Positions 10,666-36,850 of a stretch of 49,460 nt of DNA are shown one piece after another. The notes below the pieces were generated by a model that saw nothing but the letters and a program-made list of their open reading frames with translations, did not search any database and was not told the origin of the DNA. Each line of letters starts with the position of its first letter. Positions within the stretch are counted from its first letter, which is position 1. Source of the stretch: an uncultured Candidatus Saccharibacteria bacterium (lineage in GTDB: Bacteria; Patescibacteriota; Minisyncoccia; Phycocordibacterales; JAKFXT01). The stretch is from positions 1 through 49,460 of the forward strand of contig CAYGDB010000001.1 in assembly GCA_964348535.1 (NCBI GenBank), read 5' to 3'. The position numbers were made by a program, and so were the translations under genes.

Positions 10666-10666
10666 T

Positions 10667-11686: not shown

Positions 11687-11736
11687 AAATGTATCCTTTG
11701 GCAATATGGTTTTGTTTCCATAAGTAGTTGGTTTTT

Positions 11737-15461: not shown

Positions 15462-15465
15462 TAAT

Positions 15466-17154: not shown

Positions 17155-18276
17155 ATGATTACAATACCAATACTGGGAAGCACTAAATTTCTGGGGGGTG
17201 AAAATGTTTTTGTTATTGCTGATATAGGCAAGAACTTTATTCAGACAAAGGAAGAACGTCCAAACGCAGAATATTTAGAGAATGCGAAAAAATTAATAGA
17301 CGCGGCGATTAAGGCGGGGGTGGATGCCGTAAAATTTCAAACCCATGAAGTTGAGGACGAACAGCTCAATATTGAAGTGACCTCGCCTCATTTCAAAGGG
17401 TCTGATCGTTATAGTTGGATTACTCGTAATATGCGAGCGACACCGCTTTCTTTCTGGCAGGAGATAAAAGTATACTGCGATCAAAAAGGTATTATTTTTT
17501 TCTCAACCCCAATGAGTCGCAAAGCCGCTTCTAAGCTTGAGAAGGTGGGAGTCCCGCTTTGGAAAGTGGGCTCTGGCGATGTATTAGATTATGTTACACT
17601 CGATTTCCTGATAAGCACTGGAAAGCCAATAATAATATCAACGGGGATGGTAGGACTTCTAGAGCTCGATAACGTTGTTGCGTATATTCGGAACAAAGGA
17701 GCGGCGCTTTCGGTACTTTATTGTGTCAGTCAATATCCTTGCCCGCCATCGCATTTCAACCTCTCTACCATTGAGCTTTTTAAAGAAAAGTATCCCGATG
17801 TGGTTGTTGGTTTTTCTGATCATTCTATCGATGAGTACAAAGTTGATTTAATAGCGGTTAAGATTGGCGCGCGTATAATAGAAAAACATTTCTCCTTTTC
17901 GCGTGATCTCTGGGGAGCTGACCACAAAGCTTCTATTACGCCGTCCGAAATGAAAGCTATGATTGATGCTATACGGAATAAAGAATATGAAAATGTAGAA
18001 GTCGGTGATTTTTACGGTGACAAAAATAAAGAGCTTGAAGGGGCCACAAACCAGTTTCGACCCTATTTCAATAAGTCTCTTATGGCCGGTAGAGATATAA
18101 AGGAAGGTGAGATTATAGAAAAGGAAATGGTCTTTGCCATGCGTCCCCAACAGTTTGCGGGCGGTTTGCCATCAGAGGAGTACCCGAATATCCTTGGTTT
18201 AAAAACCACTACTTCACTAAAAAAATATGATCCGATTACTAAATTAACTTTTGAACATAACCCAATCAGTCAATAA
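17155..18276 (+). CDS. neuB: N-acetylneuraminate (nonulosonic acid) synthase family protein
   Basis: VFVIADIGKN...GVDAVKFQTH, VVGFSDHS, IEKHF...GADHKASITPSEM, and a C-terminal SAF-like AGRDIKEGEIIEKEMVFAMRP. Confidence 0.8.
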   Translation: MITIPILGSTKFLGGENVFVIADIGKNFIQTKEERPNAEYLENAKKLIDAAIKAGVDAVKFQTHEVEDEQLNIEVTSPHFKGSDRYSWITRNMRATPLSFWQEIKVYCDQKGIIFFSTPMSRKAASKLEKVGVPLWKVGSGDVLDYVTLDFLISTGKPIIISTGMVGLLELDNVVAYIRNKGAALSVLYCVSQYPCPPSHFNLSTIELFKEKYPDVVVGFSDHSIDEYKVDLIAVKIGARIIEKHFSFSRDLWGADHKASITPSEMKAMIDAIRNKEYENVEVGDFYGDKNKELEGATNQFRPYFNKSLMAGRDIKEGEIIEKEMVFAMRPQQFAGGLPSEEYPNILGLKTTTSLKKYDPITKLTFEHNPISQ

Positions 18277-18453
18277 TAAGTTTTCATGGGGTATTTCAAA
18301 TCAGTCCCTGGTTCCTCTCTTGTTTTGGCGGGTTTTTTAAAATTATGATTATAAATACCTTGGTGTTGAATGGCAATAAATATACTTGTAACATTAGTTG
18401 GTATAAAAAGGTTTTATATACACTGACCTTATTCTTTATTTATATCGGAGACA

Positions 18454-19824
18454 ATGCCTATTACTAGAACTATTTTAAAGGGAGTGGCCATTAACTCTTT
18501 CAGCACTCCGCTGGTCAAACTTATTGGACTTGTTTCTGTGTTTTTAATATTGAGCCACCTTAAAGTCTCTGAATACGGCACAGTTGAACTTGCCATATCT
18601 CTGACTTCTTTGTTGGGTATTTTTATGGTTCCGGGTTTGTCATCTCTTGTTCTGGCAGATGCTAGCGTCGAGAAAAGTAAAGGCGACCTTTCGCGCGCGC
18701 GCGCCATATTGTTTTCATCTTTTACGCTTCATATGACACTCGGTGCGCTGGCATGGTCCTTGACCTTTTTTGGAGCAGATTTTTTTGCCAGATTTTATGG
18801 TCTATCTAGTGATAACGTTCGCCTCGTTTCATTTTTGTTTTTATTTTCTCCTTTTCAGTCAATTTACAACACTATTTTTATGGTTCATTTGCGTTTTTTT
18901 GAGCAGTCTCTTATGGCAATTATTGGTGAAGTCGGAAAACTATGTCTACTTTTTATTTTATTATTTTTTTTTCAAATGGGCGTTGATGGAGCGCTCTATT
19001 CGATAGTCTTTTCTCAACTTCTGACTGTTGTTTTGTTTGCTCCAAAATCTGTCCAACTATTTCACAAATTAAGAGATGGGACACGAGCATCATCAGTGCC
19101 TTGGGTAAATTTGCTGAAGGGGCGTGGAATGTGGAGCATACTTACTTCATACATGGGTAATGTTGGTAGCGCCGCACGTTTGTGGATTATAAGGAGATTT
19201 CTCGGAGAAGAAGCGGTTGGTCTCTATGCCCTTGCCTCTGGACTTATGGGACATACAATAGCGCTTGCTTCACTTTCAAATGTTCTTACTCCTTTGCTTC
19301 CCCAGTATGTTCATGACCGTTACAAGTTTATTCGTCTTGTCACCAAAGGTATAGAATATCAAATTTTAGCATATATTGGGTTTGGAATAGGAGCGTTTTT
19401 TATTTTTCCACCAATACTTGGGTGGATTTTTCCAAACTATGTGGAAGCATTTCCTCTATTTAAAATCATGCTTTTGGGTCTTATTCCAGGGGCTATTGTG
19501 GTGGTTGTTACGCCAGCTTTTTTTGCTATGAAAATGCAGAAAGATCTTTTTATCTCCATGTCTTTCAAAACACTTTTGACTATCGTGATTTCCTACATGG
19601 CCGTGATGTATATTGGCCTAATGGGGCTTGCTTATGAATCAATATTAGTAGCCTCTTTTCAGGCTTATGAGCGCTCGCGCAGGTTAAGAAAAAGTCTTGG
19701 TAACGTTAATCTTTTCAGACGAAACTTTTCTTCCTTTGATGAAGACGACCGCATTATTGTTAAAGAAATATCTCAAGCCTTAAATCGAGTATTTACATTT
19801 GTTGCGCCATTTTCAAAAAAATAG
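18454..19824 (+). CDS. MOP/Wzx-type polysaccharide flippase
   Basis: 456 aa with ~12-14 hydrophobic helices, GGAG 4 nt upstream of the ATG, in a glycan-cluster context. The family call is moderate. Confidence 0.65.
   Translation: MPITRTILKGVAINSFSTPLVKLIGLVSVFLILSHLKVSEYGTVELAISLTSLLGIFMVPGLSSLVLADASVEKSKGDLSRARAILFSSFTLHMTLGALAWSLTFFGADFFARFYGLSSDNVRLVSFLFLFSPFQSIYNTIFMVHLRFFEQSLMAIIGEVGKLCLLFILLFFFQMGVDGALYSIVFSQLLTVVLFAPKSVQLFHKLRDGTRASSVPWVNLLKGRGMWSILTSYMGNVGSAARLWIIRRFLGEEAVGLYALASGLMGHTIALASLSNVLTPLLPQYVHDRYKFIRLVTKGIEYQILAYIGFGIGAFFIFPPILGWIFPNYVEAFPLFKIMLLGLIPGAIVVVVTPAFFAMKMQKDLFISMSFKTLLTIVISYMAVMYIGLMGLAYESILVASFQAYERSRRLRKSLGNVNLFRRNFSSFDEDDRIIVKEISQALNRVFTFVAPFSKK
18692..18704. 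repeat. (CG)6 dinucleotide tract inside the flippase gene
   Basis: CGCGCGCGCGCGC read directly; it encodes SRARA. Confidence 0.9.
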
Positions 19825-21026
19825 TTATTACCGAGTTCTTTGTCGAGAACTTCATCTAATCTTTGAGCGCATGTTTCAATGGAATATATTCCGTATGGAG
19901 ACAGACTAACCGTTTTTCTGTTGACATTTTCTGCTGATTTTTTCATTAGTTTGCGCGCAATCCCCAGTAGTCTCATCTGTCTAAGCGCGCGCAAAAAAAC
20001 AGATTGTAGAGATAGTTTTAATATTTTCCTGCGTAGAATGAGACGCGCGTTTAGTTCTAATTTATTAACTGTTGCCCACACTTCATGCCACGCTTTAAAA
20101 TGTCTGCGAAAAGGAATATTTAACAATAATAATTCATCTACATAACGGTGATAGAATTTCCCACAGTTGAAAGGGTATTTTTCATGTTTTTGCATATCAT
20201 GGCGTACTCGCAAATAACATTCAGCCGTTGTATTGCCAAGAGTCCTTTCTGAAACTCCTGTAAATTGATATGGCACAGCACTGTTACGTTTTTCATTCAC
20301 AAATACGTTTGACCATTGTTGGGTTATTGAACTCGAAAATTTTCCAATAACACAAAGAGGTATGTCGTAATATATTGGTTTTATGGCGTATGCAAAAATT
20401 ACTGGGTGAAAAGTAAAATTACCATACATGTGCGGGGCAATAACGTATCCAATTTCTGCCCGAGCTTTTTCACATATTGAGCGAGATACAAATGTTGCCG
20501 CGGAGTGCCAACGTGCGGGCATTTTTGATGTCCCCATTGAAAAATCGTAAACAGCCTCAAGAAGAGTGTCCTTATCGTAAATTTTTATCCTGTTTGAAAA
20601 TGGAAGCAAGAAAACCAAAGCATTATTTTGAGCCGGTTTGTGTCGATTTCCTTCTCCAAAATAATAAACATGGTTAGCTGAAACTATGTCAGCTTTTTTT
20701 CCTGCTATTATCTCCGCGTATTTCTCAAGGGAGTTTGGGATAAGGCGATTATCGTCATCGTACCAAAGAATGTATTGCCCGACAGATTTAGTATAGGCAA
20801 ATTCCCAGCCAATTGTCGGGTCGAGATTTGGCACTTCAAAGAAGTGGATGCGATTATCGTCTAGAGATTCAACAAGTCGGCGAATTATATCAGTGCCACT
20901 AGTATCTGTGACTATTATTTCCACATCAGTGAAATTTTGTTTAAGGATTGATTGAATAGCCCCTTGAACCATCTCTTTTTTTCCTACGGTGCAAATTAGA
21001 ATTGAAAACAGCGGAGAAGATTTCAT
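19773..21026 (-). CDS. GT2 family glycosyltransferase
   Basis: LFSILICTVGKKEMVQGAIQSILKQNFTDVEIIVTD and ILWYDDDNRLIP (DxD). Its 3' end overlaps the flippase 3' end by 52 nt. Confidence 0.75.
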   Translation of the reverse strand: MKSSPLFSILICTVGKKEMVQGAIQSILKQNFTDVEIIVTDTSGTDIIRRLVESLDDNRIHFFEVPNLDPTIGWEFAYTKSVGQYILWYDDDNRLIPNSLEKYAEIIAGKKADIVSANHVYYFGEGNRHKPAQNNALVFLLPFSNRIKIYDKDTLLEAVYDFSMGTSKMPARWHSAATFVSRSICEKARAEIGYVIAPHMYGNFTFHPVIFAYAIKPIYYDIPLCVIGKFSSSITQQWSNVFVNEKRNSAVPYQFTGVSERTLGNTTAECYLRVRHDMQKHEKYPFNCGKFYHRYVDELLLLNIPFRRHFKAWHEVWATVNKLELNARLILRRKILKLSLQSVFLRALRQMRLLGIARKLMKKSAENVNRKTVSLSPYGIYSIETCAQRLDEVLDKELGNNYFFENGATNVNTRFKA

Positions 21027-21038
21027 GTGGGCAAGACG

Positions 21039-22280
21039 CTAGTTTATTTTTCCAACGTTGATGACATTCACATATTTCTGACTTTTAATATAACGCCATG
21101 GATCTATGACAACAGAACCGTTTGGAAATTTTATTTTTTTGAATTGCGAATGTTTAGTGCCGATAAAAAAGACACTTTTTTTCCATTTTGGCATCGGACC
21201 GTCAATATGTGGGTCGTATAAAGATACCTTTTGCTTCTTCTCTTCAAGTATGTTTTTCAATAATATAGACGGACTGCCAGTGGTTATGTTGGTTTCTGGT
21301 TTGAAAGCTTTACCCAGAATCACTTTTGGCAGTTTATGTTCCATCATAAGTGTGGCTAACCACTCCGTTTGTTTTTCACGCGCCATCATAAGTGATTCAA
21401 AAAAATCATACGAAAGATTTAATTTGCGAGCAAGGTAAGACATGGCGATATTGTCACGGGGATGACATCCTCCACCATCACCCATGCCGGCGGTTAAGTA
21501 TTTTGGAGAGATGAGTCGTTCGTTTGCCAATTTTAAGGCGTCAGTTACGGCGTCCACGTCCATCGTGCCTCCTATTTTATGGCATATTTCCATTAGGGTA
21601 TTAACGAATACAATTTTCATTCCTATGAATGTATTGTAGGAGACCTTTATAAGCTCCGCGTTTTCAAGACTGGTAGGATAGAATGGAGAGGAATGAATAG
21701 TGCGGTAGAACTTTTTTGCAAGCTCGGCCGCTTTTTTATCAACAACGCCAAAAAGAACAAATTCTGGATTAAGAAAATCCCGCATCGTCGTTCCCATGGC
21801 AATAAAGAAAGGATTGTAGCAAAGTTTTATGTGTTTGTTTAAATTAGGAAGAATTTTTTTCTTGATAGTGCCAGGAAGAACTGTGGAAATAATAACCACG
21901 ACGCGATCTTTCCCCAGTTTTTTTACCGCTTTTGAGACTTCCGCTATGCTATTTACTAAGTGGTCGTAATTAAAATCTACGCGTTGTTTCGGAATCCGAG
22001 CTGTTCCTTCGTATTTTTCTTCGTGCGGAGTTTGAACAGCCACAAAAATAATTTCACTTTGACTGACAACTTGATCGATGGAACCAAATCGCAGTTTGCT
22101 TCTGCGCAATATTGGCTCAAATGGAGAGATGCCGTCAAAACCGGTTTCCCGATAATTTATCTTTTTCTTTTGCATTCGGGACTGGTCTATGTCGTAACCG
22201 ATAACATCGTGTCCTTTGTGGCTAATAGCCACAGCGCAAGGAAGACCGAGTTTTCCAAGTCCTATAAAACCAATTTTCAT
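21039..22280 (-). CDS. Full-length UDP-glucose/GDP-mannose dehydrogenase family protein
   Basis: MKIGFIGLGKLGLPCAVAISHKGHDVIGYD, catalytic GMGDGGGCHPRDN, 413 aa with the C-terminal domain present. Confidence 0.85.
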   Translation of the reverse strand: MKIGFIGLGKLGLPCAVAISHKGHDVIGYDIDQSRMQKKKINYRETGFDGISPFEPILRRSKLRFGSIDQVVSQSEIIFVAVQTPHEEKYEGTARIPKQRVDFNYDHLVNSIAEVSKAVKKLGKDRVVVIISTVLPGTIKKKILPNLNKHIKLCYNPFFIAMGTTMRDFLNPEFVLFGVVDKKAAELAKKFYRTIHSSPFYPTSLENAELIKVSYNTFIGMKIVFVNTLMEICHKIGGTMDVDAVTDALKLANERLISPKYLTAGMGDGGGCHPRDNIAMSYLARKLNLSYDFFESLMMAREKQTEWLATLMMEHKLPKVILGKAFKPETNITTGSPSILLKNILEEKKQKVSLYDPHIDGPMPKWKKSVFFIGTKHSQFKKIKFPNGSVVIDPWRYIKSQKYVNVINVGKIN

Positions 22281-22399
22281 ATATTAAATAACATTTTAAT
22301 GCTTAATTAAGTTTCTTATAATAACAATATGTTGCTTAATTACAAGTTTTACTGAATTTGCCATAAACGGATGGCGCTTGTATTCTAATCCTATATTTT

Positions 22400-24907
22400 A
22401 TGAAGTTTTTGCGAACTGCTTTTAAAACAATCTGCATGCGTGTTAGTAAGTCACCGCGTTTCGCCTTGCTCGCATTTTGGACAATATTGATTGGTATCGC
22501 GCTCTTTCCATTTTTATTTATGGGACGACTTTTTATTGATTCGGATGCCACACTATATTATTACCCTGTATTTGATTTTTACCATAAGGCAATTTTAAGC
22601 GGTTCGTCTTTTTTATGGAATCCTTCCATATTTCTTGGTTTTCCAACTTACTTGAGTCAATCCGCAGGATTTTTTGACCCGGTTAATTGGGTTTTGTTTC
22701 ATCTCCCGACATTTACCGCTTATCACTTGCGTCTTGCGCTAGACTTACTGCTGACGCTTGGTTTTTCCTATGGTGTTGGCAGAGAATTAAATCGCTCCAA
22801 ACTTGCCTCACTACTAATTGGCATGGGGTATATAATTGCTTTTAATTGGCGTTATCTTTCAAATATTGTAATTTTAAACAGCCTTTTTCTCTTGCCTTTT
22901 CTTTTTTATGGAGGATTTCGTCTATTTAGAGCTAAAACGGAACGACAACGTTGGTTATGGGTTTTTCTTATGGGGTTAGCTATAGGCTGGTCATTTATTT
23001 CAGGTTACGCCCAGTTTAATATATATGCATTGTTTGTTTTTGGTATTTTTTATATTTGGTATTTTTTCTCAATATTGTCAGTTGAAAAAAAAATATTGAA
23101 TTTGGTTCGATGGGCGTCTTACGCCGTCTCTATTATTGTCATCGGATTTTTAATTGGATTGCCGTCAATTCTTCCGGCATTAAAATTCACACCCCTTACA
23201 GTGCGTTCTGAAGGAGTTACCTATGAATTAGCAACATATAAAACAGTTGAGCCTGGTGACGTAATTTTATTCGCATTTCCGGATTATCTCTACTTCCCTT
23301 ATGTTTCCGATGGTCGGAAACCTTTATATGTTGGGGCTTTTCTTTTTATTCTTGCTTTGATAGCCACGCGTGAATTATTCCGCCGGCGTGTTGGTAATAT
23401 TCGGGCGTCGAATGAAATACGGATTATGGCTATTTTCATGGCGCTTTTTTTCTTCTGTTTTGTCGCTTCTTTAAAATGGTCTCCCATATATTATCTAATG
23501 CAGAAACTTCCCGTATTTGATTTGTTTCGTTTTCCATATAGGTGGATGTATTTGGGGGCGTGGTTTTTAGCGTGTCTTGGGGCATACGGGTTTGATTTCA
23601 TAAAAACTAATCCGACTTCCCGTTTCGTTAAACTTTTTTCATCAGTATTAATTTTTTTCGCGACAGCTTTTACATCCCTTGTGCTGGCGCTTAATTTTCT
23701 AGGAGAGCGTTCGTTTACATTTTTAGGGAATTTTTTACACCGCATATTGAGCCTTACGGCTTATGGTCATATGGGGCTGTATAAAGCTCCGGAACATTAT
23801 CGTGATGCCATAACTAGAGGTATGGAAGCATGGCGCGATTCACTGTCCCTTTCTGAGCCGACATTTTATGTTCCGTTTTTAATATTAATTTTCTCTATTG
23901 TTCTCTTATTTTCTCTGTCGCGCGGTCTGGTCTCGTCTAAAAGTTTTCTATTTTCAGGTTTTGTATTATCGGTGGTTACATTCCTTTCTGTTTTTATAGT
24001 GCAGTGGCCTAGGACTGTCTCTGTTGATGCCACAAATTTACATAATGCAACAGTTCAATCATTGCCGGACTTACAATCGGGGCAATATAGATACATGCCA
24101 TTTATGCTGTCTAAGGGTCTTCAATCTTATGTGCCTCCGCAATACAATTTATCTTTAAATGAAATACAATTGGTTGCCGAACTTCAATTTTCTTCAGGAT
24201 GGCCTAATATGAATCAATATGCGGGGGGTATGAGCATAGATGGATATGACCCATTCGTTTCAACCCGCTTGCTTGAAGTTTTAAATTTAATAGGCAGTAC
24301 TCACGGTGGAGAAGAGATGACGAAATTACTTTCTGAACAGGAAGTAAAAGATCGGTTGCTGAAACATCTTGGCATTGTTGGAGTCATGTCAGGTAAATAC
24401 ATACTCTCTGGAGTTCCTCTTGTTCACGAAAATCTCGGTCTTATAAGAACTGTACCAGTCTCACGCTACGGTATAAAAATGTATGTATACGAAAATAATT
24501 TTGTAGTGCCGCGCGTATATTTTGCCAGAGAGATTGTCAATAAGCCGAATGAATCACTGATTCAGTTGAATGAAGAGCGTTCTGATTTTAAAGCGAAAAC
24601 CTATCTCGATTGCGATAATTGCGTCAGTCATAAAAGTAACCAATTTGACGTTTTTAAGGTAATAAAAGATGATAACGGCATTATGGAGATTCATACCCAA
24701 ACAGTGGGACCAAGGTGGCTTGTTATTGGTGACAGTAATTTACCCGGTTGGAAATCCAATTTGGATGGAACTCCATCTCAAATCTTATCTGCCAATGGTC
24801 TGCAGATGGCCGTAGAGATTCCGGCTGGTAATCATACCGTTACATTAACTTATGTTGGGGTAATGGATGAATTAAGGGTATTAAAATTTCTTGGCGCGGT
24901 TAGATAG
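22400..24907 (+). CDS. YfhO-family polytopic membrane glycosyltransferase, copy 2
   Basis: 835 aa with many TM helices. C-terminal LPGWKSNLDGTPSQILSANGLQMAVEIPAGNHTVTLTY parallels copy 1. Confidence 0.75.
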   Translation: MKFLRTAFKTICMRVSKSPRFALLAFWTILIGIALFPFLFMGRLFIDSDATLYYYPVFDFYHKAILSGSSFLWNPSIFLGFPTYLSQSAGFFDPVNWVLFHLPTFTAYHLRLALDLLLTLGFSYGVGRELNRSKLASLLIGMGYIIAFNWRYLSNIVILNSLFLLPFLFYGGFRLFRAKTERQRWLWVFLMGLAIGWSFISGYAQFNIYALFVFGIFYIWYFFSILSVEKKILNLVRWASYAVSIIVIGFLIGLPSILPALKFTPLTVRSEGVTYELATYKTVEPGDVILFAFPDYLYFPYVSDGRKPLYVGAFLFILALIATRELFRRRVGNIRASNEIRIMAIFMALFFFCFVASLKWSPIYYLMQKLPVFDLFRFPYRWMYLGAWFLACLGAYGFDFIKTNPTSRFVKLFSSVLIFFATAFTSLVLALNFLGERSFTFLGNFLHRILSLTAYGHMGLYKAPEHYRDAITRGMEAWRDSLSLSEPTFYVPFLILIFSIVLLFSLSRGLVSSKSFLFSGFVLSVVTFLSVFIVQWPRTVSVDATNLHNATVQSLPDLQSGQYRYMPFMLSKGLQSYVPPQYNLSLNEIQLVAELQFSSGWPNMNQYAGGMSIDGYDPFVSTRLLEVLNLIGSTHGGEEMTKLLSEQEVKDRLLKHLGIVGVMSGKYILSGVPLVHENLGLIRTVPVSRYGIKMYVYENNFVVPRVYFAREIVNKPNESLIQLNEERSDFKAKTYLDCDNCVSHKSNQFDVFKVIKDDNGIMEIHTQTVGPRWLVIGDSNLPGWKSNLDGTPSQILSANGLQMAVEIPAGNHTVTLTYVGVMDELRVLKFLGAVR

Positions 24908-24927
24908 GAATTTATTAAATTAAGGTT

Positions 24928-26289
24928 ATGAAAACAATTTTTATCACCGTTAGTGATGGTGAAGTTTCTAAAAGCATATTCCAATCGGATATTTTCCCCA
25001 TGCTCAAAGATCATGCCCGATTGGTGCTTTTTGTCAGTAAAAAAACAGCTCGGCATTTTTCTGAAAACTACGGATCTGAAAAAGTGATTATTGAAACATT
25101 GCCGGCATACCCAATTCGATGGATAGAAGAGGCTTTTGCTGATTTATTTTTGTATAGTTTGCATACCGAAAGCATAGTTGTAAAAATAAAACACTCCTTT
25201 GCTTCCGGCGGGTCCTATTTTGGGAAGTGCATAAAGTTGCTACTTTGGAACATCGGAAGATTTAGTTGGTACAAAACGATTTGTCGTTTTTTCTATAGGA
25301 TTTTGCCGGATCATTCATTTGATACTTATTTTGAACGTTACCATCCCGATGTCGTTTTTGTTCCTAACCTGACTTCAAATGAAGATGCCCGCCTCTTAAA
25401 GGTTGCTCGACGTTATGGCGTAAAAAGCATAGGTATCCCAAAGGGTTGGGATAATTTAACAATAAAAACATTTTTACCTGTTTTCCCAGATAGATTGTTA
25501 GTGCAGACGGAGGAAATGAAAAATGACGCTCAAAGTATCATAAAATATCCAGTGAGTCGCATCAGCGTTGTCGGCTTTCCGAAATTTGATTTATATGCGA
25601 ATAACAGTTTAATATTGTCTCGCATGGAGTTCATGAGAAAATTCAATTTTTCCCCGGATAGAAAATTGATACTCTACGCCGGAGCTGGCGATCAATTGGC
25701 TCCATATGATGAAGATATCTTGTCGGATTTGCTTCTTGCGATTAAGGATGGAAAGGTTATAGGAGCTCCTCAAGTCTTGCTCCGTCCTCATCCGAAATAT
25801 GCTTATCGCAGTGAAATTTTACCGCCCTATCCATTTTGGATTCTTGATAGGCCAGGCAAAGTAATTGATGGTTCTGGATCAAACTTCGAGTTTGATCGTG
25901 ATGATGTTATTCATTTGATGAATTCTCTTTATCATTGCAACTTGCTTATTCATACGGCTTCAACTCTTGGGGTAGAAGCTTCAATTTTTGACAAACCTTC
26001 AATAACTCTTGCTTACGATGGCCACTTCCGAGTACCAAAGGATCTCTCTACCGCTCGCTACTACAATTATGTCCATTTGAGTAGAGTAATTAAAACTTCT
26101 GGCACAAAGGTGGCTCGTTCTTTTGAAGAGCTTTTACGTTACACAAATGAGTATCTGAAGGATTCGTCATTGGATCATTCTGGTCGAAAAGAAATGGTTG
26201 CCCGAAATTCTTATATTTTGGATGGTAAAGCAGGAAAGAGAGTTGCTGAAAACGTGATTCAATTGCTCGGCTCAAATGGAAGTCAGTAG
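24928..26289 (+). CDS. TagB/TagF-like GT-B transferase (CDP-glycerol glycerophosphotransferase-like / capsule-type)
   Basis: C-terminal half LILYAGAGD...VLLRPHPKY...CNLLIHTASTLGVEASIFDKPSITLAY. The substrate cannot be read from the sequence. Confidence 0.5.
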   Translation: MKTIFITVSDGEVSKSIFQSDIFPMLKDHARLVLFVSKKTARHFSENYGSEKVIIETLPAYPIRWIEEAFADLFLYSLHTESIVVKIKHSFASGGSYFGKCIKLLLWNIGRFSWYKTICRFFYRILPDHSFDTYFERYHPDVVFVPNLTSNEDARLLKVARRYGVKSIGIPKGWDNLTIKTFLPVFPDRLLVQTEEMKNDAQSIIKYPVSRISVVGFPKFDLYANNSLILSRMEFMRKFNFSPDRKLILYAGAGDQLAPYDEDILSDLLLAIKDGKVIGAPQVLLRPHPKYAYRSEILPPYPFWILDRPGKVIDGSGSNFEFDRDDVIHLMNSLYHCNLLIHTASTLGVEASIFDKPSITLAYDGHFRVPKDLSTARYYNYVHLSRVIKTSGTKVARSFEELLRYTNEYLKDSSLDHSGRKEMVARNSYILDGKAGKRVAENVIQLLGSNGSQ

Positions 26290-26324
26290 TGTTCTTATTT
26301 CGTCTTCTTTAAATTAAAATATCA

Positions 26325-27599
26325 ATGTCTTCAAAACCCAGAAAAATTGCCGTTGCGGTCACGCACCGAACGCCCTATGGGCGTTTAAAGCCGGTACTTA
26401 AAGCAATACAATCTCATCCCGATCTTGAATTGCAGATTATCGTGGCAACCCCTGTCTTTTTCCATGACCTTTTGTTTGCTTTACGACACTCCGATTTTTC
26501 CTCGATTAAAGTTTCAATTTCTTGGTATATTAAAGCGCGCTTAAGGAAGTTTTTTGGGGGAAAATCAGCTTTGAACGAGCTTGATTTATTATCAAAAAGC
26601 ATAAGCGCTGACGGTTTTTCTATTTCGGCCCATGTTCCTGTTTTTATTGCCGGTGGAAATTTAAAGACGATGACAAAATCAGTCGGAGCCGGAATCATTA
26701 ATTTGCCAGTGATTTTTGAAAAGTTGAAACCGGATGTTGTTCTTATACACGCCGATCGGTTTGAAATGCTTGCGGTTGCGGTGGCGGCTTCTCTTATGAA
26801 TATTCCGATTGCTCATACTCAAGGGGGAGAAGTATCGGGGACTATAGATGAAAAGGCCCGACACGCTATTACGAAACTTTCTCACATTCATTTTCCAACA
26901 ACCAATCAAAGTAAGGAAAGACTTCTTAGAATGGGCGAGAGCGCCGATAGGGTTTTTTTGGTTGGGTGTCCCACTATTGATGTTTTGAAAAGAATAGACC
27001 TCTCTCCCGATAATGCCATTTTTGATCGCAATGGTAATGGTCATGGCGATCGCCTTGACCTTTCCAAACCTTATATTTTGGTTCTCCAACACCCTGTAAC
27101 AACGGAATATGGCGAAGCAAAACGGCAAATGGAAGAAACACTTAAAGCCGTCCAATCTCTAAATATGCCGGTTTTTCTTTTGTGGCCTAATATAGATGCC
27201 GGTTCTGACGGCGCCTCTGCCGCTGTTAGTCACTTTATTAAACATCACAATCTTCCAGCTTTTGCTCTTTTCAAAACTTTACACTCGGAAGATTTTTATA
27301 AAGTTCTTAAAAACGCTACGGTGGCCGTTGGTAATTCTTCTAGCTTTATTAGGGAAAGTTCGTACTTAGGTACGCCGACCGTCCTTATCGGGTCTCGTCA
27401 AAATAATCGTGAACGAGCGGATAATGTAATTGAGGTTTCTCATGACCACGTTGAAATCAAAGAGGCAGTTTTGAAACAGTTGGCTCACGGTCCTTATCCG
27501 TCAAGTAATTTATTTGGTGACGGCGAAACTTCCAATTTGATTGCGGATATTCTTTCAGACGCAGACATTATCGCACAAAAGTATTTTATTGATTATTAA
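26325..27599 (+). CDS. neuC: UDP-N-acetylglucosamine 2-epimerase, NeuC-like (hydrolysing type likely)
   Basis: KIAVAVTHRTPYGRLKPVLKAI..., IPIAHTQGGEVSGTIDEKARHAITKLSHIHFPTT. It carries an extra ~35-aa segment near residues 45-85. Confidence 0.75.
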   Translation: MSSKPRKIAVAVTHRTPYGRLKPVLKAIQSHPDLELQIIVATPVFFHDLLFALRHSDFSSIKVSISWYIKARLRKFFGGKSALNELDLLSKSISADGFSISAHVPVFIAGGNLKTMTKSVGAGIINLPVIFEKLKPDVVLIHADRFEMLAVAVAASLMNIPIAHTQGGEVSGTIDEKARHAITKLSHIHFPTTNQSKERLLRMGESADRVFLVGCPTIDVLKRIDLSPDNAIFDRNGNGHGDRLDLSKPYILVLQHPVTTEYGEAKRQMEETLKAVQSLNMPVFLLWPNIDAGSDGASAAVSHFIKHHNLPAFALFKTLHSEDFYKVLKNATVAVGNSSSFIRESSYLGTPTVLIGSRQNNRERADNVIEVSHDHVEIKEAVLKQLAHGPYPSSNLFGDGETSNLIADILSDADIIAQKYFIDY

Positions 27600-27615
27600 C
27601 CATATTAAACATCAT

Positions 27616-28044
27616 ATGAGACAGCAATCAGTTGTGATTAAAAAAGAGGACATAGAAAAAACACTTAAATCTCCCTCAAGTCAGGGTAAACGCCTTCTTG
27701 AACCTCTCAAGATTTTCTCAAAAGAGAATAGCATTCCGCTAAATGTGCTTGAAGATAACAATGTGGTTAACGAGGCAGAGGTGCACAAACACGAAGCGGA
27801 CCTCTGGTGCTGTCTTGAGGGTGAGGTAACTTTTATTTACGGGGGAGAAATAGTTAACCCGTGGGTAAAGAAAAATGCCGATGGAACGCTCGATGAACGC
27901 GAAATAAAAGCAAAAGAGATTATCGGTGGCACAGAAGTGTTGCTTAAACCTGGCGACTGGCTCTTTATTCCGGCTGGAGAGCCTCATATGCATAAAACGG
28001 ATGGTGTTGCGAGATTGATTATTATAAAAATTCCCAAAGTTTAG
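27616..28044 (+). CDS. Cupin-domain protein
   Basis: ORF 27541..28044 overlaps neuC; ATG 27616 (MRQQSVV) removes the overlap. Motifs EVHKHEADLWCCLEGE and GDWLFIPAGEPHMH. Confidence 0.6.
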   Translation: MRQQSVVIKKEDIEKTLKSPSSQGKRLLEPLKIFSKENSIPLNVLEDNNVVNEAEVHKHEADLWCCLEGEVTFIYGGEIVNPWVKKNADGTLDEREIKAKEIIGGTEVLLKPGDWLFIPAGEPHMHKTDGVARLIIIKIPKV

Positions 28045-28046
28045 AT

Positions 28047-28994
28047 ATGTTTGAGAATTGGACAAAATGGGCGGTCGGAGAAGGGCTAATGAAGACCACC
28101 AATCGCACCCTTTCTAAATTCTTTGGTGTAACTGCGGGTACGGCAGAGGCAACATTTGCGGCAACTGTGGTAATAGGCGTTGTTCAAACAATATTTGGTT
28201 TTTTTGGGGCATTGCATCGAAAAGAAGCTCTTGTTACTAGCAGTCGTCAGATATTGGGAAGTGTTTCTTTTGGTTTTATTGCAACCATTATGACAGTGTT
28301 GGGATTTATTGTTTTCACATTTCCTGGAGCTGATGTCGGCATTGTCACATTCATCATCACTCTATCTATAGTTCCTGGAATAGTTTTGGATAGAGTATTT
28401 TTTGGGGAAAAACTTTTAGCGCGTCAATACCTAGGTATCATTTTGTTTTTATTTGCCGGCTGGGCAATGTTAGGATTTATTTCGCTCCAAGAACTTATTA
28501 TGTTGCCCGCATGGGTGCTCGTCGCTTTCGGACTGATGTTCCTCTACCCGCTGAATGAATTTATTACACGCAAGCTGGCAGTTCGTGATAAGGCAGACCC
28601 GTTCGTTAATAACTTTTGGATAGGAATTTCCACGGTAATTTTTTCAATCGTTGGGTTCTTATTTTTTGTTCGAAGTGATTGGTATGAATTGTTTTATTTT
28701 GGAAAGGTCTTTTGGCTCGTGAGCATTGCGATGGGGTTTGTGGTAACCCTTATGGTCGTATTCAAGCTGGTGGCTTACAAGAGTGGAGGCACAATCGCTC
28801 TTAAGAAATTAGTAATGCAAGGAACGCACCTTCTAACCGCCGTACTTGCCGGAGCGTTTATTTTTGGTGAGGCCATAACTATCGGGAAAATAATTGGAAT
28901 TCTTATATTTTTTGTTGCATTCTCGCTTGTCGATAAAAATACATGGGGAGCATTTGTAAATTTTTCTAAGCACTTTCTTCGGCCAAAAACTTGA
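28047..28994 (+). CDS. DMT-superfamily (EamA-like) 9-10 TM transporter
   Basis: Two internally similar halves, each ending in an FGE motif (VFFGEKLLARQYLGIILFLFAG; FIFGEAITIGKIIGILIFFVA). Confidence 0.5.
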   Translation: MFENWTKWAVGEGLMKTTNRTLSKFFGVTAGTAEATFAATVVIGVVQTIFGFFGALHRKEALVTSSRQILGSVSFGFIATIMTVLGFIVFTFPGADVGIVTFIITLSIVPGIVLDRVFFGEKLLARQYLGIILFLFAGWAMLGFISLQELIMLPAWVLVAFGLMFLYPLNEFITRKLAVRDKADPFVNNFWIGISTVIFSIVGFLFFVRSDWYELFYFGKVFWLVSIAMGFVVTLMVVFKLVAYKSGGTIALKKLVMQGTHLLTAVLAGAFIFGEAITIGKIIGILIFFVAFSLVDKNTWGAFVNFSKHFLRPKT

Positions 28995-29077
28995 CTAAAC
29001 TGGTGATTTAGTGTTACCTTGTTGTAAGAGTTCTTTGTCTTTTTTTCTTACAACCTTTGCCTAAGGAGGGCAAAAAT

Positions 29078-30115
29078 ATGACAACAAACACGATTGACCG
29101 GGAAAAGCCGGTTATTCTGATCTGTGGCGTTGACCGCGCTGCGGAAGAAAATCATCACCTGATTGCGGGCGCTTTCATGCGCTCGCGGGCTCGCACTGTG
29201 AATGTTAGGGATATCGAATTCCGGAGCTACTTGTACGTGAGGAAGTATGTTCCTCGTGCCAAGGCTCTTCTTGTTCACACTTCTTCGGCCATATCTTTGT
29301 TTGGCGACCAAACGGAGCTCAAGTGGATCAAGATCGCTCGGAGGATTGACTTGCCTATATTTTCGGTTGCGGATACCCACTTTGGTTGGGCACGCCCGGA
29401 AGTGGGGAGTCTGGCTAAAAGCGTCAAACTTTTTGTCGCTTCACCATCCGAGGTTGCCGAGGCCACAACTTTCGGATATGAATCCCCAGAGTACATAGGG
29501 GGGCCACCTTTGTGGGGGTCATTTCGGATGCAGGATGGCTTTTACCGTCCGGAGGACAAAGTCTTTTTTGTGGGCGGGCTGAAATCTCCGAAAATCACCG
29601 ACGAAATGCTTGAAGTTGTGGTCCGAGGGATTCGTCTGGTACATGGTGATGACTTCGGTCTAATATTCAGGCCACATCCCAAGGAGGACTCAAGTGAGGA
29701 TATTAAATCCCGGCGGGAGGCTATTCTTCTCGGTGTAAGGCAAATTCCGGTTGGTTCCTCCGAGCTTCATGACCTTGCTCGTTCGGAGGTTTCGTTCTTT
29801 ACATCGGGGGCGACAGGAGTCATCGCTGCCGGCATCAATAGATTGCCAACAGCATACTATCTCTCGGATTCGGTTGACGCTCGAATGATGAAATCAATTG
29901 GGCGCAAGGACTGGACTCCTGTTTCCGAGGGTGCGACGGTCACCTTTAGGAGTCCTGAGGATGTGAAGGGGATTGTCGATGGTTTTCTGAACGTGAATGT
30001 TTCGTCATCCCTTCGTGGGGCCCAAGCAAAAGTTTATCCCGATGGACTTGGGGTTGGCTCTGCCGAGCGAATCGTCGAGCGTATACTCCAAGAACTCCAA
30101 GAAATTGGGGCTTAA
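29078..30115 (+). CDS. Hypothetical GT-B-like protein with RPHPK motif; G+C-rich cassette
   Basis: ORF 29057..30115; ATG 29078 is preceded by AAGGAGGGC (29063-29071). VFFVGG...LIFRPHPKE...FFTSGATGVIAAGINRLPTAYY parallels the 24928 product. Confidence 0.45.
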   Translation: MTTNTIDREKPVILICGVDRAAEENHHLIAGAFMRSRARTVNVRDIEFRSYLYVRKYVPRAKALLVHTSSAISLFGDQTELKWIKIARRIDLPIFSVADTHFGWARPEVGSLAKSVKLFVASPSEVAEATTFGYESPEYIGGPPLWGSFRMQDGFYRPEDKVFFVGGLKSPKITDEMLEVVVRGIRLVHGDDFGLIFRPHPKEDSSEDIKSRREAILLGVRQIPVGSSELHDLARSEVSFFTSGATGVIAAGINRLPTAYYLSDSVDARMMKSIGRKDWTPVSEGATVTFRSPEDVKGIVDGFLNVNVSSSLRGAQAKVYPDGLGVGSAERIVERILQELQEIGA

Positions 30116-30135
30116 CTTTCTAAGTTCCTTTCGTA

Positions 30136-30172
30136 AATGTCCAGAGTGAATCTTCACTCTGGACATTTTTTT
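30136..30172 (+). terminator. Rho-independent terminator
   Basis: AATGTCCAGAGTGAA (30136-30150) pairs with TTCACTCTGGACATT (30153-30167), then a T-run. Confidence 0.85.
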
Positions 30173-30191
30173 GTTGCATTAAAAATAATTT

Positions 30192-30219
30192 TTGTTAGTG
30201 TTAATTTACATACTATAAT
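30192..30219 (+). promoter_or_regulatory. Candidate promoter for neuA and downstream genes
   Basis: TTGTTA (30192-30197), 16-nt spacer, TATAAT (30214-30219), 19 nt before the ATG at 30238. Confidence 0.5.
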
Positions 30220-30237
30220 TTGGTTTTTTATATATCT

Positions 30238-30960
30238 ATGGAAATACAAAAAAAAATTCTTGCGGTTATTACCGCTCGTGGTGGTTCAAAAGGCCTTCCA
30301 GGTAAAAATATTAAGATTTTAGGTGGAAAACCTCTTATTGCTTACAGTATTGAGTCTGCCAAAGAAAGCGATCTAATAACTCACTCCATTGTTTCAACAG
30401 ATGATCCCGAAATAGCGGAAGTGGCTCGCAAGTGTGGTGGCGAAGTTCCGTTTATGCGTCCTGCGGAGCTCGCGATAGACACAGCTGGACATGTCGGTGT
30501 TATGCAACATGCGGTGAAATTCATGGAGGAAAAGCTTGGTCTTACATTTGACTATGCTGTAATTTTCCAACCAACGTCGCCATTTCGAACTAAGGATGAA
30601 GTTGATGGCACTATTCAAAAACTGATAGATATCGGAGCCGATTCAGCTGTAAGTATTTTTGAAATAGATTCCACGTATCATCCTATTAAGGTGAAAAAAC
30701 TTGAGGGAGATCGAGTTCTTCCGTATTGTATGGAAGAGCCAGAAGGAAAGAGACGGCAAGACCTGCCAAAAGCATATCGCAGAAGCAGTGCTATATATGC
30801 AATGAAAAGAGACCTTTTGATGATTGATGGAAAGCTTTTTGGAGACTATGTTGTCGGATATGTAACTCCACGCGAATACTTTGTTGATATTGATACCCAT
30901 TTTGATTGGATGGTGGCGGAAGGCATATTCAATAAGTTGAATGCGGCTGGGCGGATATAA
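30238..30960 (+). CDS. neuA: Acylneuraminate cytidylyltransferase (CMP-sialic acid synthetase family)
   Basis: ORF 30220..30960 with the start at ATG 30238. ILAVITARGGSKGLPGKNIKILGGKPLIAYSIE is the canonical CTP_transf_3 N-terminus. Confidence 0.88.
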   Translation: MEIQKKILAVITARGGSKGLPGKNIKILGGKPLIAYSIESAKESDLITHSIVSTDDPEIAEVARKCGGEVPFMRPAELAIDTAGHVGVMQHAVKFMEEKLGLTFDYAVIFQPTSPFRTKDEVDGTIQKLIDIGADSAVSIFEIDSTYHPIKVKKLEGDRVLPYCMEEPEGKRRQDLPKAYRRSSAIYAMKRDLLMIDGKLFGDYVVGYVTPREYFVDIDTHFDWMVAEGIFNKLNAAGRI

Positions 30961-30961
30961 A

Positions 30962-32332
30962 ATGAAAAACAAGACTTGGTGGGTGACAATTCTTATTGCG
31001 GTTTCGTTTTTGTCAGCGGCTTTGTCGTTTTTTGTTATTTATGATTTATCGGTTAAAAACGAGTTTCGTTTTCCCTCTCTTACTGGGGATTCCAATCACT
31101 ATCGCATTCTTGCCGAGAATCTTATTTCAAAACAGGCTTTTGACCGTTTTCCGGACTCCTACTCGCCGGAGGATTTTAGGACTCCGGGGTATCCGTTATT
31201 TCTTGCTCTGCTTTTTCTGATAACCGGAAGCTGGGTTTTCTCGGCGTTTTTACAGTCGCTTATTATGGCTTCTATTCCCATACTGACTTATTTTCTGGGG
31301 GAGAAGATTTTTAACGCCCGAGTCGGACTTGTTGCCGGTTTCATCGTCGCCCTTGACCCGCTTAGGCATTTTTTCTCTTCTCTTACTTTATCGGACGCTC
31401 CTTTTACGGCGCTTTTGCTGGCTGTTTTTGTTTTATTTTTCTATGCCATTCACGATAGCGTAAATCCTGGCAGGAAAATGTTTATGGCGGGGCTTGTTCT
31501 CGGTTTCGCCGTTTTGGTTCGTCCGATAGGGCAGTTTCTGCCGATATTTTTTATATTATTTTGGTTTGTTCAAAAGAGGTGGGAGATTCGTTTGAATTTA
31601 AAACCGGCGATTATTTTTCTGGCGGGATTTTTAATTGTTGTCGGAGCTTGGTCTATCCGCAATCAGGTTACCTTTGGCACTTGGGAGATTGCTTCGGTCA
31701 GTAATTATAATATTGCTTATTACGCCGAACTTTTTGAACAAGAAAGAACGGGGGTTTCGCTTAACGAGCAACAAGAGAAGCTTGCTTCAGAGCTTGGCTA
31801 TTCGGACAGGGAAGTGATGCGCTCAATGAAAGCAAATGATATCAATATAAGATACGCCAAGGATGTTCTTTTTGCCCATCCTTTTGAATACACTTACTAC
31901 CATTTGGTAAAAACAATCCCGTTTTTTCTAAACGATGGACTTAGGGATACCGCTCGTTTGCTCGGCCTTAACGACGAACCTCTCCCAAATTTCACAGGGT
32001 TTCTTCTTGACGGAGAATTTAAGAAGTTTTTTCAAACTCTTGGTGTCGGAGGGGTTAATGCCACCCTTTTAATTATGGGCTCCGGTTTTATGTTTATTTT
32101 TTTGATTTTAGCCGGTTACGGGGCGCTTGTCGGATTTAAAAACAGGGAAAGTCGTCTTGCGGTTATCTTTTTTGTCGGCATAATTTTTTATTTTGCTCTT
32201 GTTACGGGTCCTGTATCAACCGCTCGTTACCGCTTGCCCGTTATGCCGTTTATTACCATTCTGGCCGTTTCAGGATTTATTTCCGCTTTTCATAAGATAA
32301 GGTCGCGTTCTGGCATTGCTCATCTTAAATGA
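30962..32332 (+). CDS. GT-C membrane glycosyltransferase (PMT_2/ArnT-like)
   Basis: ATG 30962 directly abuts the neuA stop. SPEDFRTPGYPLFLALLF loop motif after TM1; ~11 TM helices. Confidence 0.7.
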   Translation: MKNKTWWVTILIAVSFLSAALSFFVIYDLSVKNEFRFPSLTGDSNHYRILAENLISKQAFDRFPDSYSPEDFRTPGYPLFLALLFLITGSWVFSAFLQSLIMASIPILTYFLGEKIFNARVGLVAGFIVALDPLRHFFSSLTLSDAPFTALLLAVFVLFFYAIHDSVNPGRKMFMAGLVLGFAVLVRPIGQFLPIFFILFWFVQKRWEIRLNLKPAIIFLAGFLIVVGAWSIRNQVTFGTWEIASVSNYNIAYYAELFEQERTGVSLNEQQEKLASELGYSDREVMRSMKANDINIRYAKDVLFAHPFEYTYYHLVKTIPFFLNDGLRDTARLLGLNDEPLPNFTGFLLDGEFKKFFQTLGVGGVNATLLIMGSGFMFIFLILAGYGALVGFKNRESRLAVIFFVGIIFYFALVTGPVSTARYRLPVMPFITILAVSGFISAFHKIRSRSGIAHLK

Positions 32333-34318: not shown

Positions 34319-34328
34319 GATTTTGCTT

Positions 34329-36803: not shown

Positions 36804-36850
36804 ATAGATATTCTTTTGGAGCTCGCACCCGTCGGTCCTCTTTGGACGGT

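Follow-up and report, generated by a model that had tools for sequence, protein, structure and literature searches.

A NeuC/NeuB/NeuA gene set in an expanded surface-glycan module of Patescibacteria: a probable lineage-specific pathway to a CMP-activated nonulosonic acid

The closest described counterparts of the genes reported here are NeuC, NeuB and NeuA of Escherichia coli K1 and Neisseria meningitidis (SiaA, SiaC and SiaB), which belong to the same three protein families and follow the same reaction logic. The locus in question lies on a 49,460-nucleotide stretch of DNA (contig CAYGDB010000001.1; hereafter the window) from an environmental metagenome-assembled genome (MAG) of a Patescibacteria bacterium, a member of the candidate phyla radiation (CPR). 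It encodes a NeuB-family nonulosonic acid synthase, a NeuC-type UDP-N-acetylhexosamine (UDP-HexNAc) 2-epimerase and a NeuA-type cytidylyltransferase that would yield the cytidine monophosphate (CMP)-activated sugar. Identity to the E. coli proteins is about 28% for NeuB (trimmed alignment), 31.6% for NeuC and 28.5% for NeuA, and NeuB is 31% identical to its N. meningitidis counterpart. The metal and phosphoenolpyruvate (PEP) ligands of the synthase are shared with these systems, and its C-terminal part aligns with their antifreeze protein (AFP)-like domain, including the essential Arg. The NeuD, NeuS and Kps export machinery of E. coli K1 are missing from the window, whereas its cupin, its drug/metabolite transporter (DMT)-superfamily protein and its TagF-like putative transferases are absent from the K1 locus.

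Other described systems resemble parts of the locus. The epimerase domain of human GNE is the best solved relative of the window NeuC, and both have a ‘GGEVSGTID’ core. The human enzyme carries a fused N-acetylmannosamine (ManNAc) kinase, whereas the window NeuC has none, the window has neither a phosphatase nor a kinase, and the bacterial protein has an N-terminal insertion of about 40 residues that GNE lacks. The legionaminic acid (Leg) pathway (LegB, LegC, LegH, LegG, LegI and LegF), exemplified by a plasmid locus of Haladaptatus (L010 in our numbering of compared loci), likewise has a NeuC-type epimerase and a NeuB-family synthase, and this locus gave the highest pairwise identities among the references (36% for the synthase and 34% for NeuC). 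The defining enzymes of the Leg pathway (a dehydratase, a DegT aminotransferase and a NeuD/PglD acetyltransferase) are absent from the window and rare beside the synthase clade of the window NeuB. For the accessory genes, YhcH is an anomerase dependent on Zn, which acts on N-acetylneuraminic acid (Neu5Ac) and ketodeoxynononic acid (KDN) by ring opening (PMC8141875). When Tanf_01245/TFUB4_00887 of Tannerella forsythia, whose orthologue in strain 92A2 is BFO_1060, is deleted, the O-glycan loses its terminal derivative of pseudaminic acid (Pse) or Leg (PMC5420450).

In the literature we found no paper on nonulosonic or sialic acid biosynthesis in Patescibacteria/CPR. Patescibacteria have genomes of about 1 Mb and live attached to other microbes; few are culturable, and their surface chemistry is almost undescribed. 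Our finding is that the window holds a lineage-specific version of the known pathway. It is probable that this version is functional and specific to Patescibacteria, that the scattered gene order is an expanded variant of a module, and that its product is of the Neu type. A preliminary description of the window, made from its sequence, had proposed a complete but scattered route. The three genes are real (Table 1), with profile matches far beyond chance, and together they could plausibly suffice for the synthesis of a CMP-activated nonulosonic acid. The genes between them are also as that description had listed them, namely a flippase, an inverted pair, a YfhO gene, a TagF-like gene, a cupin, a transporter and an orphan gene; the last has no Pfam match.

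The window represents 49 kb of a genome of about 1 Mb, so that about 95% of the genome lies outside it. Relatives of the synthase were surveyed by comparing an alignment of its clade with one genome per GTDB species, which gave at least 600 matching stretches, 581 of which encode a relative. The genes around the synthase in five relatives, and in the best 80 of the surveyed species representatives, were identified with phmmer. Co-occurrence was counted in 39 loci from other species that carry the window's synthase clade and have at least 5 kb on both sides; a gene was scored if it lay no more than 8 kb from the synthase. The synthase tree was constructed by neighbour-joining (NJ) only, with 100 bootstraps and a small reference set: NeuB of E. 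coli K1 (from UTI89) and of N. meningitidis (from a PDB alignment), the Haladaptatus synthase (Leg-type context), an Azospirillum synthase (DegT/acetamidino context), and PseI of Bacillus thuringiensis and Acinetobacter baumannii, both from full Pse contexts.

The profile checks that had been suggested for the three genes were run, and PF03102, PF02350 and PF02348 matched NeuB, NeuC and NeuA, respectively (E values in Table 1; 213.8 bits against a gathering score of 22.1 for NeuB, and 73 bits for NeuA). For PF08666 (SAF), also suggested for NeuB, Pfam returned no match at E <= 0.001, but the C-terminal domain aligns with that of N. meningitidis NeuB, as far as residue 345 of the latter, and all clade members keep R330, the equivalent of the essential Arg314. 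A precomputed PF08666 match is on record for about a third of the clade. Among solved structures N. meningitidis NeuB scores highest (154 bits, with an alignment spanning residues 41-363), followed by Bacillus subtilis SpsE (141 bits) and PseI (133 bits). When scored against the active-site residues listed for the N. meningitidis enzyme (PMC8208679, PMC6795526), the window NeuB keeps K53, Q55, T110, K129, S132, Y186, S213, H215, E234, H236, D247 and R314, the last of which positions the N-acetyl group (PMC6795526). Two changes, F112M and E134D, are present throughout the clade and mark it out, and E134D has otherwise been reported in archaeal and eukaryotic synthases (PMC8208679). A further change, E25D, is confined to the window protein; like E134D it is conservative. 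By these residues NeuB looks catalytically competent. The pocket residues of the clade were not diagnostic.

The clade is monophyletic in all 100 bootstraps and sits on a long branch. Exact matches of the window NeuB protein occur on metagenome contigs. Identity to its 120 best relatives in the database is 61-70%, and the minority with a named source come from Pacebacteria, Parcubacteria, Kaiserbacteria and other Patescibacteria/CPR or are labelled plainly as ‘bacterium’. The best 80 of the 581 surveyed relatives are 48-70% identical and almost all from Patescibacteria of aquifers, lakes, oceans and treatment plants; a few bear other taxon labels, some of which belong to automated third-party annotation (TPA) bins and may be unreliable.

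As the preliminary description had supposed, the epimerase is a hydrolysing NeuC and not an enzyme of the WecB/MnaA type. It scores 348.6 bits on TIGR03568 (hydrolysing NeuC/NnaA; cut-off 235.9) vs 76 bits on the WecB model, and its solved relatives in HMMER searches are the human GNE epimerase domain (222 bits), an A. baumannii LegG-type enzyme (188 bits) and WecB-type enzymes (<=50 bits). In an NJ tree it clusters with GNE. The catalytic residues D112, E137, D143 and H220 (GNE numbering) are conserved. The protein belongs to a GNE-like ‘QGGE’ subtype with the N-terminal insertion mentioned above, and it groups with NeuCs that adjoin the synthase clade in six other loci (L053, L069, L063, L057, L072 and L050). 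The Gln at GNE position 134 was considered as an inactivating change and ruled out, as 13 CPR NeuCs also have Gln there, E. coli K1 NeuC has His, and the acid of the GGE/D motif is conserved.

The solved relatives of NeuA are CMP-Neu5Ac synthetases (125, 105 and 92 bits), with KdsB enzymes at no more than 32 bits; on the KdsB models of NCBIfam the protein scores at most 44 bits. It is 59-65% identical to NeuA of the closest cassettes. The open reading frame (ORF) extends upstream of the ATG at 30238, which is nevertheless the likelier start because the -10 box of a promoter-like site ends at 30219. A strong terminator-like hairpin lies further upstream (Table 1).

The preliminary description had noted no dehydratase or aminotransferase of the Pse or Leg type, and this was borne out. 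Pfam and tblastn searches of all window frames found no PseB, PseC, PseH or PseG and no LegB, LegC or LegH homologue, and no DegT-type aminotransferase, PseB/LegB dehydratase or NeuD/PglD acetyltransferase. The tblastn queries were DegT, a PseB-like short-chain dehydrogenase/reductase (SDR), two NeuD/PglD-type acetyltransferases and a 2-hydroxyacid dehydrogenase, and the best E value was 0.16. The sole extended SDR of the window was considered as a hidden LegB or PseB and ruled out: it scores 97 bits on LegB (cut-off 475) and 29 bits on PseB, and its best solved relative is human UXS1. From its sequence it appears to stand outside the nonulosonate route and to fit the UDP-sugar dehydrogenases of the island. 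The Pse route uses PseG and not a NeuC-type enzyme; the presence of NeuC in place of PseG therefore further disfavours Pse. With no Leg or Pse genes in the window, and with such genes rare near the clade elsewhere, a 5-acetamido Neu-type acid derived from UDP-N-acetylglucosamine (UDP-GlcNAc) is the best guess for the product.

The comparison of neighbourhoods revealed a recurring CPR module with the order TagF-like (one to three copies), NeuB, NeuC, NeuA, 2-hydroxyacid dehydrogenase, a variable part (cupin, DMT protein, orphan family), Wzy_C/TPR, MurB and SecA. NeuC and NeuA were each found near the synthase in 35 of the 39 loci, and all three occur together in about 90%. The 2-hydroxyacid dehydrogenase was found in 30, a TagF-like gene in 25 (often as two or three tandem copies), Wzy_C/TPR in 22, the orphan family in eight, the cupin and EamA proteins in seven each, and a DMT protein of the window type in five; DMT and EamA proteins taken together amount to about 12 loci. 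DegT (6/39) and the PseB-like SDR (2/39) were rare and, where found, lay in separate cassettes with their own synthase paralogue; one of these, in L008, has a true PseI (392 bits, above the cut-off of 340). Wzy_C/TPR followed by MurB and SecA is found in the window, in L007, L009 and L032, and in others.

The locus with the most similar NeuB (L007, 70% identity) has a compact cassette of NeuB, NeuC, EamA, NeuA, dehydrogenase, orphan family, Wzy_C/TPR, MurB and SecA at the same chromosomal site as the window module. A sister lineage (L095 and L096) has the exact order of the window from YfhO through Wzy_C/TPR, with identities of 85% for NeuC, 88% for the cupin, 69% for NeuA and 74% for YfhO (the last in L096). 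NeuC lies 1-9 kb from NeuB in about 15 other loci. Four of the seven elements that had been listed as separating the three genes (TagF-like, cupin, DMT protein and orphan) are themselves members of the module. On these gene orders, the scattered layout appears to be no patchwork but a stable variant in which a module, compact elsewhere among CPR genomes, has been expanded.

The preliminary description had read the dispersed layout as assembly from separate acquisitions, which is mostly wrong: the intervening genes are recurrent companions at the same chromosomal site and in the same order in the sister lineage. The idea has support for NeuC and for the orphan only. Across 65 loci, identity to the window covaries between NeuB and NeuA (r = +0.54), whereas NeuB and NeuC are anti-correlated (r = -0.33). 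The window NeuC subtype directly adjoins more distant members of the synthase clade in other genomes, and together these observations suggest that module variants have exchanged NeuC. The orphan has a GC content of 51.5% against 40% for the window, and DMT protein, orphan and NeuA are the most diverged products relative to the sister L095 (63, 56 and 69% identity, against 74-93% for the other shared genes). The region around the orphan (29078-30168) thus looks like a hot-spot of recombination or replacement. From these sequence comparisons the history would be one of local exchange inside a module, with no assembly of a pathway from unrelated pieces.

Several observations weigh against a functional, Neu-type version of the pathway as described. 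NeuB fails both equivalog models, with 239.1 bits on TIGR03569 (NeuB/LegI; cut-off 399.65) and 207 bits on TIGR03586 (PseI; cut-off 340.25); the clade member in L007 scores 234 on the former. In the NJ tree the clade falls outside the Neu, Leg-context and Pse references, with its sister group divided among Pse (26%), another CPR clade (20%) and Neu (17%), and identity to all references is 28-36%, highest for the Haladaptatus synthase. Given its position outside the reference clades and below both cut-offs, homology alone cannot name the product. The loop at residue 74 differs in the clade and, together with F112M and E134D, constitutes a clade-specific change of the pocket. The best NCBIfam model for NeuA is PseF, with 168 bits and a cut-off of 205.7 that is not reached, and in BLAST the window NeuC is closer to the archaeal Haladaptatus NeuC of Leg context (200 bits) than to that of E. 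coli K1 (120 bits). A 2-hydroxyacid dehydrogenase accompanies NeuA in most relatives, which suggests that the clade's usual product may not be plain Neu5Ac and hints at tailoring. Leg-type upstream enzymes could sit in the larger part of the genome beyond the window, and the evidence for the transferase, anomerase and ligase roles discussed below consists of distant homology and gene neighbourhood. The earlier preference for a Neu5Ac-type product over Pse or Leg hence stands as far as the gene content of the window goes, and is weakened by the failure of the synthase to reach either cut-off and by its placement in a clade of its own.

It is unlikely, though worth keeping in view, that the clade makes an undescribed nonulosonic or 2-keto-3-deoxy acid, starting from another UDP-HexNAc or a phosphorylated sugar or modified at a later step. 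The distinctness of the clade and its two invariant substitutions would fit such a product, as would the presence of at least four NeuB-family clades in CPR genomes and the 2-hydroxyacid dehydrogenase found with NeuA (in one locus as a fusion), for which no described nonulosonate pathway using such an enzyme was found in the literature. The window and its sister lineage lack this dehydrogenase, however; the substrate and metal ligands of N. meningitidis NeuB, R314 included, are kept in the window except for F112 and E134, and UDP-GlcNAc, the simplest substrate, is on hand in any cell that makes peptidoglycan. An extension of this idea, which we put forward tentatively and as no more probable, is that the Patescibacteria-wide NeuB clade and its partners make and display an acid other than Neu5Ac, Leg or Pse as a lineage-wide surface determinant of these ultra-small episymbionts, for instance in attachment to the host. 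The partners in this idea would be NeuC (GNE-like or of another kind), NeuA with its frequently linked or fused 2-hydroxyacid dehydrogenase, the BFO_1060-like GT-B putative transferases, the YhcH-like cupin and the DMT protein. A Leg-type (5,7-diacetamido-3,5,7,9-tetradeoxy) product, with NeuC acting as LegG on UDP- or GDP-diNAc-bacillosamine and the upstream enzymes encoded beyond the window, seems improbable. In its favour, neither TIGR03568 nor TIGR03569 tells Neu enzymes from Leg enzymes, the Haladaptatus proteins are the nearest references in pairwise comparisons of both NeuC and the synthase, and most of the genome is outside the window. The lack of dehydratase, aminotransferase and acetyltransferase genes in every window frame speaks against it, as do the rarity of DegT and PseB-like genes near the clade, typically beside another synthase paralogue, the better HMMER score of NeuC with GNE than with LegG, and the grouping of NeuC with GNE in the NJ tree.

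The preliminary description had also suggested a sugar that mimics a host. That the locus makes canonical Neu5Ac in mimicry of an animal host, with three genes from separate horizontal acquisitions, is very improbable and largely refuted by synteny. The absence of Leg and Pse genes, the discordance of NeuC and NeuB and the foreign GC content of the orphan are compatible with it, but the organism is an environmental Patescibacteria bacterium, and the clade is spread over groundwater, lake and marine CPR genomes. NeuB and NeuA covary, the locus is syntenic with compact cassettes and has the same order in the sister lineage, the intervening genes are conserved module members, and the synthase falls outside the Neu clade. 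Equally hard to credit is that the three genes do not cooperate and are remnants, or parts of separate glycan systems, without a complete pathway between them. NeuB is indeed 8 kb from NeuC and behind an inverted pair, and a strong terminator stands between orphan and NeuA. All three ORFs are nonetheless full length with conserved catalytic residues, NeuC is comparably distant from NeuB in the roughly 15 loci cited above, and the trio recurs in about 90% of loci; the 85% and 69% identity of NeuC and NeuA to their sister-lineage counterparts indicate purifying selection.

Under the preferred reading of a Neu-type route, NeuC would hydrolyse and 2-epimerise UDP-GlcNAc to ManNAc, a reaction established for its family with the substrate here presumed. 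NeuB of the CPR clade would condense ManNAc with PEP to a 5-acetamido acid with the Neu skeleton, either Neu5Ac or a close isomer or derivative. The YhcH-like cupin may then speed the interconversion of open-chain and ring forms to provide the right anomer for NeuA, which would make the CMP-sugar. The TagF-like protein, and possibly the orphan of the GT-B glycosyltransferase (GT) fold too, would add the sugar to a lipid-linked surface glycan. Either Wzx or the DMT protein would flip this glycan, and the ligase-like Wzy_C/TPR protein would then attach it outside the membrane.

For the TagF-like protein, the NCBIfam model NF046086 (BFO_1060_trans) gave a match of 55 bits (E 6.3e-15), below its cut-off of 200, and TIGR04396 also matches; a PDB sequence search gave nothing useful. 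Among CPR TagF-like relatives, 35 of 36 match BFO_1060_trans (best E 1e-24), all below the cut-off. The likeness to the Tannerella protein extends to a TagB/TagF-like GT-B architecture, an HP motif (RPHPK in the window) and a position beside nonulosonate biosynthesis genes, whereas the low score and the frequent occurrence of two or three tandem paralogues set the CPR genes apart. The HP motif is not invariant in the CPR family, and the D/E-D/E-G motif was not seen by eye in the window protein. The orphan has no sequence match in Pfam, NCBIfam or PDB, and Pfam was also negative for 42 members of its family. A word-indexed search yielded one homologue and exhaustive HMMER searches 79 representatives. 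Its AlphaFold2 (AF2) model (mean predicted local distance difference test score, pLDDT, 91.9) has a generic GT-B fold; the matches (epimerases, MurG, GT1) are likewise generic, and no specific family could be assigned from structure. In a profile comparison by hhalign its family aligned over 280 columns with the TagF-like proteins (E 2.5e-14, 98.3% probability), HP motif against HP motif, and K169, H200 and E203 (‘PHPxE’) are invariant in its family. With hhalign, no relation was found of the orphan family to E. coli NeuE or of the TagF-like family to E. coli NeuS. We infer that both proteins are distant relatives of the Tannerella nonulosonate transferases and putative transferases themselves.

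The cupin was modelled by AF2 with a pLDDT of 96.4, and its best Foldseek matches in PDB are YjgK (9jrr; E 6.9e-6, template modelling (TM) score 0.56) and YhcH (1s4c; E 1e-5, TM 0.57). Cupin_2 matches all 12 family members examined, and weak full-length DUF386 matches were obtained for seven of these. The window protein itself scores 22-23 bits on DUF386 (PF04074; gathering score 26.5) and E 0.15 with a PDB profile. H57, H124 and H126 are invariant. Of the roughly 297 proteins in the family, the few with a named source are from Patescibacteria/Parcubacteria, or are labelled as a cupin-domain protein or plain bacterium. The window cupin resembles YhcH/NanQ in being small, metal-binding and encoded beside nonulosonate genes, as well as in structure, but YhcH/NanQ sits in catabolic operons, whereas the context here is biosynthetic and the sequence similarity marginal. 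A putative role in equilibrating the anomers of the new acid for NeuA is a reasonable inference by analogy. The DMT protein has about 9-10 hydrophobic segments; PF00892 is matched by 11 of 12 family members (best E 8e-12), and hhalign related it to the EamA proteins of other loci with 95% probability. It could move a sugar, a CMP-sugar or a lipid-linked intermediate.

Identification of the product and its acceptor would provide a molecular handle on how CPR cells present themselves to hosts and phages, and would make the TagF-like genes and the orphan defined candidates for nonulosonate transferases, a class with few characterised members. It would also allow a test of a YhcH-type anomerase in biosynthesis and might explain the NeuA-linked 2-hydroxyacid dehydrogenase. 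In annotation, the label ‘N-acetylneuraminate synthase family protein’ in a CPR genome should not be read as Neu5Ac or host mimicry.

Table 1. Features of the window discussed in the text, with position, strand and the match or signal on which each assignment is based
Feature	Position	Strand	Evidence
UDP-glucuronate decarboxylase-like SDR, sole extended SDR in the window	9559-10665	+	human UXS1, 197 bits
NeuB-family nonulosonic acid synthase, Patescibacteria-wide clade	17155-18276	+	PF03102, E 3.4e-63
Wzx-type flippase (Polysacc_synt), in the 6.6-kb block that parts NeuB from the other module genes	18454-19824	+	PF01943, E 1.7e-12
GT2 glycosyltransferase, inverted block	19773-21026	-	PF00535, E 7.7e-18
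Nucleotide-sugar 6-dehydrogenase (UDP-glucose dehydrogenase type), inverted block	21039-22280	-	UDPG_MGDP_dh N-terminal, central and C-terminal domains
YfhO-like GT-C membrane glycosyltransferase, first in the co-directional array containing NeuC	22400-24907	+	weak PF09586
TagF-like GT-B protein, candidate CMP-nonulosonate transferase	24928-26289	+	NF046086, TIGR04396
NeuC-type hydrolysing UDP-HexNAc 2-epimerase	26325-27599	+	PF02350, E 1.2e-65
Metal-binding cupin, YhcH/YjgK (DUF386)-like, putative nonulosonate anomerase	27616-28044	+	Cupin_2, structure match
DMT-superfamily (EamA-like) polytopic membrane protein, two-repeat	28047-28994	+	weak EamA match
GT-B orphan, short divergent TagF-like/BFO_1060-like homologue, second candidate transferase	29078-30115	+	hhalign
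Strong terminator-like hairpin (15-bp stem and T-run) in the orphan/NeuA gap	30135-30168	+	sequence
Promoter-like sites upstream of NeuA	30160-30219	+	sequence
Acylneuraminate-type cytidylyltransferase (CMP-nonulosonate synthetase, NeuA)	30238-30960 (ORF from 30220)	+	PF02348, E 3.7e-20
PMT_2 GT-C glycosyltransferase	30941-32332	+	Pfam
GT2 glycosyltransferase	32368-33105	+	Pfam
Methyltransferase	33111-33848	+	Pfam
GtrA protein	33845-34318	+	Pfam
Wzy_C (O-antigen ligase-like) membrane protein with C-terminal TPR, syntenic anchor, candidate glycan ligase	34185-36485	+	PF04932, E 1.2e-20
MurB, housekeeping gene downstream of the island	36842-37867		Pfam
SecA, housekeeping gene (followed by Obg and GatB)	38385-40847		Pfam

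The genes described above belong to a contiguous island of about 36 kb (approximately 644-36485) that is given over to surface glycans and makes up nearly all of the window ahead of the housekeeping genes, as judged from the ORF listing and Pfam matches of the large ORFs. The PMT_2, GT2, methyltransferase and GtrA genes form an extracytoplasmic glycosylation set between NeuA and the ligase-like gene, found in the same order in L095 with 80-93% identity. The ORF of Wzy_C/TPR, read from a TTG at 34185, overlaps GtrA by 134 nt and encodes 766 amino acids against 719 in L095, for which reason its true start is probably downstream of the GtrA stop. Wzx-like genes also occur near the module in other loci. 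By analogy, the presence of Wzx, of Wzy_C/TPR and of the GT-C, GtrA and GT2 genes suggests that the glycan is built on a lipid carrier and attached outside the membrane. The dehydrogenase of the inverted block scores 204 bits on TIGR03026, above the cut-off of 189.8. Wzx and the GT2 gene of this block are convergent, with an overlap of 52 nt (19773-19824) that is one edge of the inverted block.

Some side observations concern the related CPR loci. At least four distinct NeuB-family clades besides PseI are found in CPR genomes, often two or three to a locus (L009:6865-7893 and 14425-15408; also L037, L067, L075, L013, L057, L063, L069 and L068), and one form is short, with 327 amino acids and no C-terminal domain. 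A paralogue close to N. meningitidis NeuB, which we call NeuB2, is present in L003, L005, L019, L059 and L087. In each it belongs to a second cassette of NeuA, 2-hydroxyacid dehydrogenase, NeuB2, NeuC and a PseB-like 4,6-dehydratase, without an aminotransferase (L003:4374-9969 and L005:3573-9996, for example), the product of which could perhaps be a 9-deoxy nonulosonic acid. The PseB-like SDR just upstream of the clade NeuB in L003 and L005 was considered as a member of the latter's pathway and ruled out; it belongs to the second cassette, because it follows NeuB2 in L059 and L087. The D-2-hydroxyacid dehydrogenase that adjoins NeuA in most CPR modules (L007:4927-5877, for example) resembles PGDH and glyoxylate reductase, and its fusion to NeuA is a 574-amino-acid protein (L008:17011-18735). 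A decayed copy of this gene was sought in the window by tblastn and none was found.

The upstream half of the island (644-17073) encodes several GT4 and GT2 enzymes and a GT47-like protein, along with a C-methyltransferase for sugars (8265-9488), the UXS-like SDR of Table 1, an oxidoreductase of the GFO/IDH/MocA family similar to UDP-GlcNAc 3-dehydrogenase (10667-11686), a first YfhO protein (12873-15461) and a GT2-methyltransferase fusion (15466-17073). This enzyme set implies a second glycan, methylated or branched. Three ORFs, 68-568 (166 amino acids), 4397-5503 (368 amino acids) and 44959-45444 on the minus strand (161 amino acids), had no Pfam match at E <= 0.001. A 291-amino-acid UDP-sugar dehydrogenase ORF (2778-3653) has the N-terminal and central domains but lacks the UDP-binding one at the C-terminus, and may therefore represent a truncated gene or a pseudogene; its full-length paralogue is the dehydrogenase of the inverted block.

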